From the NCBI GenBank assembly GCA_963813025.1, contig CAWEXO010000011.1, forward strand, positions 576,001 through 640,000: a DNA stretch of 64,000 bases. The letters are read 5' to 3'. The translations under genes were made by a program, and so were the position numbers. The notes beneath the pieces were generated by a model that did no database searches, was not told the origin of the DNA, and saw only the letters and a program-made list of their open reading frames with translations. Positions 6,180 to 29,863 of this stretch are shown here, one piece after another (position 1 is the stretch's first letter; each line of letters begins with the position of its first letter). The stretch is from an uncultured Verrucomicrobiae bacterium. GTDB lineage: Bacteria; Verrucomicrobiota; Verrucomicrobiia; Chthoniobacterales; JAFAMB01.

Positions 6180-6234
6180 CAAGACGGCTCAAACAAGTTC
6201 TCGCTAAGGCTCGAATGAATTTTCGCCCTACCGG
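6180..6234 (+). repeat. REP family A copy (distal from RAYT)
   Basis: CAAGACGGCTCAAACAAGTTCTCGCT...TTTTCGCCCTACCGG, near-identical to 28851-28905 and 29725-29772. Confidence 0.85.
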
Positions 6235-26567: not shown

Positions 26568-27344
26568 TCAGGGCGGGAATTTGCCAGCGGCGTTTTCCCG
26601 GAAACGCCACTGTTCCAGGAATTTGCGCGTAATCGGGGCGGGATAACAAGATTCTTCCGCAGCAGATCGGGACATGAGTTCACGCGACAGACGTTCCAAC
26701 GACGCGGCGTCATCCACGTCATACCACTCGCCCAGAGTGACGACCCGCAAGCCGAGTTCCGCGGCCCTTTGGAGAGTCTGGCTGAACACGCGGTCCGTGC
26801 TCCAATCAATATTGGCAAATAACGCGGGGTAAAGCGTGGTCATCCCGATCAGATAATAACCTCCGTCTTCGGTCGGACCGAGGACGAGCCGGTCAGCCGG
26901 CGCACTAGTTAGCTGATCGATCAGCTCCTGGTAGTAATGTACGGGCAAGGACGGGCTATCGGAGTCGATCAACGCCACGCTCGAAAAGCCCACGGAGAAC
27001 AGGTCCCGGAGAGCATTGTGCAGGCGTTGGCCAAAATCGGAACCTCGTTGAGGGATCAAAAAGAATTCCGGCGGGACCGCTCCGAAAAATTCGTTTTCCG
27101 AACCGGCCGGCGTATAGATCGCTACACCCACAGCCTGGCCGGCTTTGCGGCAGGCCAGTGCGATATTCGCGGTTGTGTCCCGGAGAAAACATCGGCTCAG
27201 ATCAGCGGCTTGCTCCGGTCGAAGCGGCGGACACAATCTTGTTTTGGACTGGCCGGGTCGAGGCGCCTTGATCATGACCCCGAGTGCGCAATACCCGATC
27301 AGGCCCTTGACCGTTTTGTCTGGTTCAAGGAGTGCGAAGCTCAT
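26568..27344 (-). CDS. DUF2064/TIGR04282-family glycosyltransferase-like protein
   Basis: K.P.PG.SKTRL, Q.G.D.G.R, DSDSP, GP..DGGYYLIG, WST, WYDVD. Confidence 0.85.
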   Translation of the reverse strand: MSFALLEPDKTVKGLIGYCALGVMIKAPRPGQSKTRLCPPLRPEQAADLSRCFLRDTTANIALACRKAGQAVGVAIYTPAGSENEFFGAVPPEFFLIPQRGSDFGQRLHNALRDLFSVGFSSVALIDSDSPSLPVHYYQELIDQLTSAPADRLVLGPTEDGGYYLIGMTTLYPALFANIDWSTDRVFSQTLQRAAELGLRVVTLGEWYDVDDAASLERLSRELMSRSAAEESCYPAPITRKFLEQWRFRENAAGKFPP

Positions 27345-27499
27345 GGCTCGACGTTCCGTGGTTGAGAATCAAAGTTCAAGGCTGTCGCGCCAGATCGTTT
27401 TGGCTGAGCGATTTATCACGCCAGTCTGGCCAATGCAGGGTATCGAAGCGCGTTTAAGCGATGGGAAGGACCCGATGCCGGTAGATACGGTCTTGGATG

Positions 27500-28510
27500 T
27501 CAAGGGCATTGCTTTAAGGAATGGCGGGCCAGGTTAGGATTGTAGGGTTGTTGGTGAGCGAGAACACCGAAGGCGATGTGCAGGAGTTTTCGCATGACGG
27601 CACCGCGGATAGCCAGGGAGTGGAGCTTGCGCGACTCGAGACCTGCGGCCCATTGCTGGATGGGTTTACACCAGCGGCGAGCAACGGCGGCCGGCAAATA
27701 GAGTGCTTTGCGCAGGAAAGCGTTGCCGATTTTGCACAGGGTGGTTTTGCCGTAGAGCGAGACACCGGAACGGAATTCAGAAGGATTCAGCCCAGCATAG
27801 GCCGCCAACTGCCGAGCCGATTGGAACTCTTTACCGGCCAGCTCGGCCAGCAGCTTGGCGGCCGTGAGCTGGGCAATGCCGGGAATAGAGCACAGCAGTT
27901 GGCTTTGGCGGCTTAAAGCCTGATCAGCCGCGACTAAGCCGAAGATGGCCGACTCCAGCTGAGCGATTTCTTTCTTGAGCTGGGCGAGTCGTTGGCCACG
28001 CTGTTGGCTGATAAGCTCGGGCAGCGCAATTTGGTAAGGGTCTTTTTTCACCCGGTTCTGTTCCCGGATGAGCTTGCCAACCCGGCTTTCGCGCTCCCGC
28101 ACCAGCAGTTTGAATTCTTCCTCAAGGGGGCGCAGCGGCCGAGTGGCCAGTGGTTTTCGCTCCAGACAAAACTGGGCAATGATGGCCGCATCAACCCGAT
28201 CATTTTTGGTGCGGCGCAGGACCGAGAAAGCAAAGTATTTGACTTGGGCGGGATTGAGCACGCTGACCGCCAAGCCTGCTTGGTGCAGAGCGGCGATCAA
28301 TCTCTTCCCGTAGACCCCGGTGGCTTCCAGGGCGAAGTGGATCTGGGAGAGCGGCCAAGAGCGGGCCTGGAGTTGGGCTAAAAATGCTCCAATGCCGGTC
28401 GCATCATTGCTGAACTTTCCCCGCCACAGGCGAGTGCCATTCTTGGAGAGCAGGCAAAAGTCAAAGCTTGCTTTTGCCATATCAATACCCATGCAGTAGC
28501 GTTTTTTCAT
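27500..28510 (-). CDS. IS110 transposase / bridge recombinase (336 aa)
   Basis: RuvC-like DEDD (GID, LEATG, KND..DA), SIPGI, A.AGL.P...SG.S (Tnp serine), GNA.LRK.LY, A.MRKL. Confidence 0.95.
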   Translation of the reverse strand: MKKRYCMGIDMAKASFDFCLLSKNGTRLWRGKFSNDATGIGAFLAQLQARSWPLSQIHFALEATGVYGKRLIAALHQAGLAVSVLNPAQVKYFAFSVLRRTKNDRVDAAIIAQFCLERKPLATRPLRPLEEEFKLLVRERESRVGKLIREQNRVKKDPYQIALPELISQQRGQRLAQLKKEIAQLESAIFGLVAADQALSRQSQLLCSIPGIAQLTAAKLLAELAGKEFQSARQLAAYAGLNPSEFRSGVSLYGKTTLCKIGNAFLRKALYLPAAVARRWCKPIQQWAAGLESRKLHSLAIRGAVMRKLLHIAFGVLAHQQPYNPNLARHSLKQCP

Positions 28511-28559
28511 CAGACAGGAATTCGCGTTGAATTGGTTCTTTGTTTGATGAAGCGCTTGG

Positions 28560-28790
28560 GCGCGCGCCTGCTGACAGAGCCTTGTGAACACGGGCTTATG
28601 TTCCAACCCTGTTTGGAAGGGCCTAAGATACGGTACGGTCTTATGCAGGTGCGGCACGAGGAAGGGTGGACTAATCTACCGGACAGGTTCTACCGACCTT
28701 TGGGCGAGGCAGTTTTCCACCCTCCTCGGCCAAGTTCTTCACCTCCAGAGTTCCGCCCTTGCGGGCGGCTTTAAAAGGGAAAAAAAATTG
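28560..28790 (-). ncRNA. IS110 bridge RNA (target-binding and donor-binding loops)
   Basis: Guides CCTCGCCCA (28709-28701), CCGGTAG (28682-28676), ACCGTATCT (28634-28626) and CACAAG (28586-28581) match the target and donor; closing stem GAGGAGGGTGGA/TCCACCCTTCCTC; ends are approximate. Confidence 0.82.
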
Positions 28791-28805
28791 GTGGGGCAAG
28801 GTACA

Positions 28806-28956
28806 AGGGCGAACACTTGTTTTGAGCCGGACCCCGGAGTTGCCACCGTCCAAGACGGCTCAAACGAGTCCTCGCTGAAGCTCGGATAAGTTTTCGCCCT
28901 ACCGGTCGTGGACCAGCGGGATTTTGTGAGACAGCCTCTAAATTTTTGCCCTACCG
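28806..28956. repeat. REP family A REPIN on the RAYT 3' side (left arm split by IS110)
   Basis: AGGGCGAACACTTGTTTTGAGCCG...CGGCTCAAAC...TTTTCGCCCTACCGG, plus partial TTTTGCCCTACCG near 28944. Confidence 0.85.
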
Positions 28957-29017
28957 AAACAGGGCAAATAGTGAGTCAACGAGTGCTTAGAGCCGTCACC
29001 ACCAATCAGCAATCGGG

Positions 29018-29458
29018 TCATCTCACCTTGGAATCGCCAACGCGCTGGCTCGTCGTCAAGCCCGCCCTAATCGGATTCACGAGTATATACCGGTACCTTG
29101 CTTCAGCGCTGTCGTGGGCGCGAATCCGATGATGGAATGCCCCGGACTGCCATCTGCACCCTGGCTGATCGAATCGTAGTGAGACCCGCGATTTCCAAAT
29201 CTTGATCCAAAGATCCAGTCCGGCTGGGCCTGAGCCTGGCCAAGCAAAGAAATGCAGGTGATCAGGCATGATCATGTAGCGCCCGATGTGCCAGTCAGTT
29301 GCTTCTCCCCACGCTGCAACGAGCAATGTGTGTACCGTATCGTTAGCCAGCCATCTGACTCGCTTTCGGGTGCACACGGTGACAAGCACCAAAGTGGGCT
29401 GTTCGTCGATAAAAAGAACACCTTTTGCCGGGTGTTTGCGTGGCGGCCGATAATCCAT
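29018..29458 (-). CDS. REP-associated tyrosine transposase (RAYT, Y1 HUH); probable C-terminal frameshift
   Basis: VT.CT, MPDHLH (HUH), WQ..F.H.IR, YI..NP.RAGL; the alternate frame continues EPARWRFQGEM; flanked by GTAG REPs. Confidence 0.88.
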   Translation of the reverse strand: MDYRPPRKHPAKGVLFIDEQPTLVLVTVCTRKRVRWLANDTVHTLLVAAWGEATDWHIGRYMIMPDHLHFFAWPGSGPAGLDLWIKIWKSRVSLRFDQPGCRWQSGAFHHRIRAHDSAEARYRYILVNPIRAGLTTSQRVGDSKVR

Positions 29459-29560: not shown

Positions 29561-29772
29561 CGGTAGGTGAAAACTTTATTTGAGCCGTTTTGCGCGCGTG
29601 GCCTACCTTTTGGTCCGGCTCAAACAAGTTTTCGCCCTACCGATCTAGGGCGTTGCGCGACATGCTCTTTATTCGAGTGCCAAGCGAGAACTTGTTCGAG
29701 CCGGGCGCTGAGGCAGGTCACACCTAAGACGGCTCAAACAAGTCCTCGCTCGAATAAATTTTCGCCCTACCG
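29561..29772. repeat. Two REP family A REPINs upstream of RAYT
   Basis: CGGTAGGTGAAAACTTTATTTGAGCCG / CGGCTCAAACAAGTTTTCGCCCTACCG (29561-29642) and GCGAGAACTTGTTCGAGCCG / CGGCTCAAAC...TTTTCGCCCTACCG (29684-29772). Confidence 0.87.
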
Positions 29773-29863
29773 ACATCGGGCACGAGGGCGATTTCGTTGC
29801 ACTTATGCCGCGCTGTGATCTGCGATTGCTATCTGCAATCGCGAGCGCAACGTGGCAACATAA

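Follow-up and report, generated by a model that had tools for sequence, protein, structure and literature searches.

The stretch of DNA analysed here (the window) comprises 64,000 nucleotides of an uncultured Verrucomicrobiae bacterium, positions 576,001 to 640,000 of contig CAWEXO010000011.1 (NCBI GenBank assembly GCA_963813025.1), and carries on its minus strand an IS110-family insertion sequence at 27483-28807 (Table 1). The element consists of a recombinase gene preceded by a non-coding left end of 297 nt. The left junction reads GTTCGCC-CT-TGTAC (28814-28801) and the right junction ACCGTAT-CT-ACCGG (27491-27478); the sequence common to both is CT only, with no other duplication. We regard the element as an intact, recently active and autonomous insertion sequence of the IS110 group, which operates in the manner of IS621 of Escherichia coli and the mobility of which is guided by a bridge RNA, and place the probability of this reading at about 0.88. 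The features examined at the sequence level support its assignment to the IS110-group bridge-RNA systems.

The 336-residue gene product contains the N-terminal RuvC-like DEDD domain (PF01548, residues 8-156, E = 1.7e-31) and the C-terminal Tnp domain with its catalytic serine (PF02371, E = 1.1e-21), and scores 204.5 bits against a cut-off of 140 with NF033542, 'IS110 family RNA-guided transposase'. Searches with phmmer matched it to the recombinases of IS621 (8wt6; E = 4.6e-46) and ISCro4 (9t56; E = 2.2e-44). Residues D10, E62, D104, D107 and S248-G249 align with D11, E60, D102, D105, S241 and G242, which are named as the catalytic residues of IS621 in PMC11208158 (the chain index of the PDB entry runs two ahead of that numbering), and E62, D104, D107, S248 and G249 are invariant in eight relatives. 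A search across the phylum gave matches at E <= 1e-40 in two of 401 genomes, its own included. An exact look-up of the 336-residue protein in the sequence collection gave no match, where another start codon may possibly have been called. The IS110 DEDD domain is matched 40 times in its own genome, 39 of these above the cut-off.

The genome searched comprises 4.42 Mb in 16 contigs and is 80% complete by tool estimate. BLAST with 27483-28807 returned 20 matches from it, among them seven full-length copies (aligned over 1-1325 at 99-100% identity), all of which start with CTTGTACC, end with CCGTATCT, and retain both the 336-residue open frame and four guide strings (see below) that are identical throughout. 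The copy in the window differs from its six siblings at 7 to 12 positions; the substitutions nearest to the guides lie outside them, at element positions 108 (linker) and 119 (hairpin). CT is present at both junctions of every copy, and the adjoining bases differ (c or t before it, t or a after it). An initial annotation of this DNA had proposed an intact element with these ends and a CT core as in IS621. Both proposals held when the copies and their flanks were mapped, no copy with other boundaries or an unrelated target being found among them, and every string that the annotation had quoted is present on the minus strand.

The insertion sites are uniform. When partial copies are included, ..TCGCC stands before 12 of the 13 left ends and ..TCGCT before the remaining one, and ACCGG follows all 12 right ends. 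The corresponding empty site TCGCC-CT-ACCGG, the 12-mer TCGCCCTACCGG, occurs 95 times in the genome, whereas approximately 0.5 occurrences would be expected for a random 12-mer; 75 of these sites read TTCGCC.. and 12 read CTCGCC.. This 12-mer terminates a unit of about 50 nt (..GGCTCAAACAAGTTCTCGC..GCTCGAATAAATTT-TCGCCCTACCGG) resembling a repetitive extragenic palindromic (REP) sequence, and such units often stand as inverted pairs about 106 bp apart. The element occupies one arm of an inverted pair, the other arm of which is uninterrupted. Its target is TTYTCGCC-CT-ACCGG inside this REP-like repeat, a specificity that differs, as had been predicted, from that of IS621, for which PMC11208160 gives ATCAGGCCTAC.

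Four strings in the left end can be read as guides, namely those for the left target (LTG), the right target (RTG), the left donor (LDG) and the right donor (RDG), and the initial annotation had read all four. Its LTG, CCTCGCCCA, indeed agrees with GTTCGCC+CT at six of nine positions; CCGGTAG, at 28682-28676, is the exact reverse complement of CTACCGG; and ACCGTATCT, at 28634-28626, reproduces the left donor and core without a mismatch. The proposal of CACAAG as the RDG stands in part: the string is present and its ACAAG pairs with CTTGT, but the sixth base is mismatched. The RTG, LDG and RDG each include both core bases. Within the window ACCGTATCT is found twice, at the right end and in the LDG only (0.23 occurrences expected; three of 100 shuffles reached two). 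When the left end (287 nt) was shuffled 200,000 times, this 9-mer arose in 239 shuffles and the RTG 7-mer in 3830, and both together arose in eight. The AT directly 3' of the RTG could pair with donor positions 6-7 (the AT of ACCGTAT); the donor is invariant there, and a role for this AT as a handshake guide is at most consistent with the alignment. A candidate handshake after the RDG was rejected: its first base, G, could pair with target position 7 (C) in most relatives but not in the L049 group (G).

Table 1. Positions in the window of the IS110-group element, its guides and helices, and the adjoining target sequences
Feature	Position	Strand	Basis or remark
Whole IS110-family element	27483..28807	-	1325 bp including a CT core copy at each end
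Recombinase gene, 336 residues plus stop	27500..28510	-	Matches to PF01548, PF02371, NF033542 and IS621
Left target flank GTTCGCC of this copy	28808..28814	-	Flank of the left end of the element
Core CT, left junction	28806..28807	-	Followed by TGTAC
-10-like hexamer TACCTT, left end	28798..28803	-	17 nt from TTGACA once the ends are joined
5' stem-loop GCCGCCC-GCAA-GGGCGG	28753..28769	-	Six pairs, invariant in 25/25; also predicted by folds
Closing stem of target-binding loop, 5' strand	28716..28733	-	Helix 2
Left target guide (LTG) CCTCGCCCA	28701..28709	-	Reads in the sense of the left flank and the first core base
Stem-loop inside target-binding loop (AGGTC..GAACCT)	28685..28699	-	Helix 3: five pairs, 96% paired, without covariation
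Right target guide (RTG) CCGGTAG	28676..28682	-	Exact reverse complement of CT+ACCGG, 7/7
AT directly 3' of RTG, site of the IS621 handshake guide	28674..28675	-	Position according to PMC11208158
Closing stem of target-binding loop, 3' strand	28652..28670	-	Helix 2
Closing stem of donor-binding loop, 5' strand CCTGC	28645..28649	-	Helix 4, pairs with GCAGG
Left donor guide (LDG) ACCGTATCT	28626..28634	-	Identical to right end plus core, 9/9
Stem-loop inside donor-binding loop (CTTCCAA..TTGGAAC)	28600..28619	-	Helix 5: seven pairs, six with two-sided changes, 83% paired
Right donor guide (RDG) CACAAGG	28580..28586	-	ACAAG complementary to left-end CT+TGT, 5/6
Closing stem of donor-binding loop, 3' strand GCAGG	28567..28571	-	Helix 4
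-35 hexamer TTGACA, right end, overlapping the recombinase stop codon	27498..27503	-	Sequence
Core CT, right junction	27483..27484	-	Preceded by ACCGTAT (27491-27485)
Right target flank ACCGG	27478..27482	-	Adjoins right core
Intact target TCGCCCTACCGG, partner arm of the repeat pair, opposite orientation	28894..28905	+	Repeat search

The left end appears to be organized as a structured RNA. Single-sequence folds are more stable than those of shuffled sequences (z = -3.0 and -2.6) and contain a 5' hairpin together with a long stem enclosing the first two guides. For a comparative analysis, 25 distinct left ends were aligned (those of this element and of two diverged copies in its own genome, together with four taken from other genomes and 18 taken from contigs of metagenomes); constrained consensus and single-sequence folds proved noisy and were replaced by five helices read from the alignment. 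In these helices 93.9% of the cells are paired, compared with 40-51% when the partners are slid by 1-3 columns, and changes on both sides are found in 16 of the 42 pairs against 6.0 ± 1.6 in shuffled alignments, none of 500 of which reached 16. Helix 2 contributes 17 pairs, seven with changes on both sides and 95.3% of cells paired, and helix 4 contributes seven pairs, three of which have changes on both sides. G-U pairs are confined to this strand (one pair is U-G in all 25 sequences), which fits an RNA of the same sense as the gene rather than a DNA cruciform. The order is a 5' stem-loop, followed by a stem enclosing LTG, stem-loop and RTG, and then by a stem enclosing LDG, stem-loop and RDG. 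The LTG-RTG-LDG-RDG order inside stems, as read by the initial annotation, is recovered here, with a 5' stem-loop and two internal loops with covarying closing stems. A search of 27300-29100 against Rfam 15, with E up to 10, gave three sub-threshold and unrelated matches (two microRNAs and one snoRNA); a bridge-RNA model may not be part of Rfam.

The concerted change of guides and flanks is the strongest evidence for the proposed bridge-RNA guidance. Relatives were collected from species genomes (22 loci) and from contigs of soil metagenomes (80 loci), the nearest being loci in metagenome-assembled genomes (MAGs) of Verrucomicrobiae, Verrucomicrobiota and Chthoniobacterales. The ends were located by motif and the RTG was anchored by the invariant GAACCTG(T/G) that adjoins it, which gave 39 loci with both RTG and right flank, or 32 unique pairs in which 14 distinct RTGs are represented; L094, L100, L106 and L117, distant loci whose anchors were doubtful and which had no right end, were set aside. 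Complementarity to the right flank was found at 146 of 160 non-core RTG positions and was perfect in 24 of the 32 pairs, whereas permuted pairings gave 91.4 ± 5.0 with a maximum of 114 in 10,000 permutations. The range of guides is illustrated by the RTG/flank pairs CACAAAG/TTGTG, CTTGTAG/ACAAG, CCCGGAG/CCGGG and GGGTCAG/GACCC. For the LTG, the register of which shifts by about one base among clades, the best ungapped seven-base match to the flank was taken within the 24 nt before the anchor, and permuted pairs were scored by the identical procedure; the 26 unique pairs matched the left flank at 157 of 182 positions, with 127.4 ± 4.3 and a maximum of 144 in 5,000 permutations. On the donor side, every right end with ACCGTATCT goes with an LDG of that sequence. 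The variant ACCCTATCT occurs as LDG in L055 and L065, both of which have ACCCTATCT at the right end, and ACGGTATCT is found at both places in L127; the right end of L064 is ACCCTATGT.

A promoter of σ70 type may also be rebuilt when the two ends of the element are joined in a circle (TTGACA-17-TACCTT). The relatives keep TTGACA or TTGACT at the right end, and TACCTT or TATCTT at the left end, and a -35 element in the right end and a -10 element in the left end are likewise described for IS621 circles (PMC11208160). A cycle can be proposed in which the element would be excised as a circle, the joining of right end to left end would place TTGACA 17 nt upstream of TACCTT, and from the promoter so formed the left end would be transcribed as a bridge RNA of about 200-230 nt. 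The first internal loop would read the target through the LTG (CCTCGCC + C) and the RTG (CCGGTAG), and the second loop would read the joined ends of the element itself through the LDG (ACCGTATCT) and the RDG (ACAAG). The DEDD/Ser recombinase, presumably held by this RNA, would then exchange strands at the CT core, and the element would land at TTYTCGCC-CT-ACCGG in the abundant REP-like repeat. We infer that such a system would be programmable.

Several observations weigh against this account or narrow it. The LTG matches its own site at only five of the seven non-core positions and the sites of the other copies at five or six, and its last base, A, mismatches the T of the core; after the LTG 7-mer, 20 of 26 relatives have CA and only two have CT. 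The LTG (CCTCGCC) fits a site of the TCTCGCC type at 7/9, better than its own site at 6/9, and the CTCGCC type is the rarer one. Eight of the 32 RTG pairs are imperfect (L053 with 2/5; L021, L063, L065 and L071 with 3/5; L061, L079 and L088 with 4/5). The RDG (ACAAGG) and the left end CTTGTA are both invariant among the relatives, so that the RDG carries no covariation evidence, and the same holds for the 5' stem-loop, which never varies, and for the small hairpin of the first loop. The five scored helices were drawn from the alignments on which they were then scored, which inflates the contrast with the slid controls, and many relatives are close kin, so that the permutation tests overstate independence, yet many distinct guide classes are represented. 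Transcription of the bridge RNA is deduced from the sequence. Contigs from three sequencing runs spanned the element in part only, showed no informative junction across it, and bear on neither expression nor excision. With regard to the core, pairing of all four guides with both core bases, a trait of IS621, was not found here, the LTG ending in CA and not in CT. Such pairing is reported as preferred in IS621 (PMC11208160) and is a detail of that system rather than a defining feature of the family.

The matches might instead act at the level of DNA, the halves of the repeat having been captured and serving, together with the copy of the right end, as recombinase-binding sites with no guide RNA involved. 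The great abundance of the repeat, fragments of which could readily be captured, and the fact that the bridge-RNA transcript is deduced rather than observed both speak for such an origin. We nevertheless consider it very improbable, since the target halves have opposite senses and a conserved hairpin between them rather than forming a contiguous copy of the repeat, and since relatives with unrelated targets (TTGTG, ACAAG, CCGGG and GACCC) keep both the split arrangement and matching guides. The stems, moreover, stay paired through G-U pairs and compensatory changes on this strand, and the protein is a close structural-family relative of those of IS621 and ISCro4, for which guidance by RNA is established. 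It is also improbable, to a somewhat lesser degree, that the family was recently active while the copy at 27483-28807 is itself a silent or fixed passenger whose guides are readable relics. Of the seven copies, this one has the left flank, GTTCGCC, that the LTG fits least well. Against a relic stand the intact 336-residue frame and ends, guides that are the same as in the six siblings in spite of the 7 to 12 differences, and the presence at different sites of two deletion derivatives identical at 1007 of 1013 positions, which indicates recent mobilization.

A further possibility accepts the bridge RNA and assigns part of the choice of site to the repeat itself, through its hairpin, its shape or a host factor, such that reprogramming of the guides alone would be insufficient. 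A single repeat family accommodates all of the mapped ends (13 left and 12 right) despite an LTG fit of 5-6/7, and this repeat often forms inverted pairs about 106 bp apart; both can be understood in this way, and a preprint on ISPpu10 reports, for a conserved intergenic sequence, a 'sequence-structure dual-match logic' (10.64898/2026.03.19.712850). Guide pairing alone, on the other hand, would explain the choice of site when 95 exact copies of the 12-mer are available, the relatives appear to retarget by changes of their guides alone, and IS621 can be reprogrammed by guide changes (PMC11208160). We judge such a dual control unlikely.

The genome also contains shortened forms of the element. 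Two internally deleted derivatives of 1012 and 1013 bp (C15:123618-124629 and C9:218159-219171) share one deletion, are identical at 1007 of 1013 positions and have different flanks; they stem from a diverged relative of the element in the window, and both lie in the REP-like repeat, at different sites, which suggests that they were mobilized in trans. A third internally deleted derivative has 632 bp (C12:154616-155247). In all three, the two ends and the complete bridge-RNA region are retained, whereas the recombinase frame is truncated or is missing the portion with D104 and D107. Elsewhere, the copy at C8:36966-38210 has an internal deletion of about 80 bp, and that at C9:67089-69147 retains only the first 298 and the last 312 bases with about 1.4 kb of other sequence between them. 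In an uncultured Verrucomicrobiae MAG, a 49%-identical relative (L035:1-1300) has, in one copy, a threefold tandem repeat at the junction of the bases with which the left end starts, CCTTGTATCTT.

Further IS110 lineages share the genome with the element. One of about 1.7 kb (ten copies examined, for example C4:3203-3679, C11:77058-77534 and C11:83624-84100) is inserted in the same REP-like repeat a few bases upstream (..AAATTTTC-G-CCCTACCG..); it shares a single base with its site, and its ends, insertion base and core differ from those of the element at 27483-28807. With PF01548, other IS110 lineages of the genome score 76 and 75 bits, compared with 111-112 for this element, and the DEDD matches fall into several score groups, suggesting at least four lineages in the 4.4-Mb genome. 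As a tentative proposal, somewhat less probable than its opposite, these observations may be joined in one picture, in which a 14-bp target is read asymmetrically, non-autonomous derivatives carry the RNA and several bridge systems divide one repeat among them. In it, the LTG may read seven bases and the first core base only, and the RTG its full seven, and the 1012/1013-bp and 632-bp derivatives may be served in trans by full copies.

In the window, TCGCCCTACCGG is also present at 6223-6234, 29632-29643 and 29762-29773. An open reading frame adjoining the repeats (29018-29458, minus strand, 146 residues) matches the NCBIfam model of a REP-associated tyrosine transposase (E = 1.8e-16) with 60.4 bits, below the cut-off of 80, and gave no match in Pfam; it could represent a diverged transposase linked to the REP-like repeat family. 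On the other side of the element, a DUF2064 gene (26568-27344, minus strand) starts 139 nt beyond the right end, and the outward-facing TTGACA of that end points toward it.

The mechanism and the family have already been described for IS621 and ISCro4, and NCBI names the family 'RNA-guided'; the element in the window leaves the known mechanism unchanged and provides a clean natural example of bridge-RNA guidance. With 14 different RTGs in the clade, most of which match their flanks base for base, the logic by which bridge RNAs were discovered is repeated on independent sequences. The element is a candidate recombinase orthologue with a 14-bp natural target and a 7-nt RTG, and the abundant REP-like repeat serves at least two IS110 lineages of the host as a safe landing pad. 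The initial annotation had seen in it a natural programmable orthologue from a distant phylum; it is an IS110 orthologue, but its phylum is not novel, since Supplementary Table 1 of Durrant et al. (PMC11208160) includes at least ten IS110 recombinases from Verrucomicrobia/Verrucomicrobiota. None of these ten resembles the 336-residue protein when compared by eye.

The features described for IS621 in PMC11208160 and PMC11208158 are shared to a large extent. Both systems have a two-domain DEDD/Ser recombinase with all of the catalytic residues, a CT core, and, in the left end upstream of the recombinase gene, the coding sequence for a guide RNA (putative in the present element), with a 5' stem-loop followed by a target-binding and then a donor-binding loop; both follow the LTG-RTG-LDG-RDG order, with LTG and LDG in the top-strand sense and RTG and RDG complementary; and in both the RTG is followed by AT, at the position of the IS621 handshake guide, a -35 element lies in the right end and a -10 element in the left end (putative in the present element), and a repeated extragenic sequence is the natural target. 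They differ in that the protein match is a distant one, the target here comprises 7 + CT + 5 positions compared with 11 bp in IS621, and the donor is ACCGTAT-CT-TGTAC. The RTG has 7 nt instead of 4 nt (longer RTGs in orthologues are noted in PMC11208160), the LTG pairs with the first core base only, and the left end measures 297 nt compared with 191 nt (methods of PMC11208160), with longer closing stems. IS621 has been studied at the bench, whereas the present system is known from its sequence. The comparison with ISCro4 (PDB 9t56) covered the protein, which belongs to the same family, and IS622, a bridge recombinase of this family too, is reported in a preprint to have been used in human cells (10.1101/2025.05.14.653916), which has no bearing on the present orthologue. 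ISPpu9 and ISPpu10 of Pseudomonas putida (PMC12288879; 10.64898/2026.03.19.712850) are similarly multi-copy IS110-family elements, inserted at one base of an abundant extragenic repeat, but belong to another phylum and use another repeat, and in ISPpu9 a small RNA gene lies downstream of the transposase gene, whereas the guide region of the element described here lies upstream.

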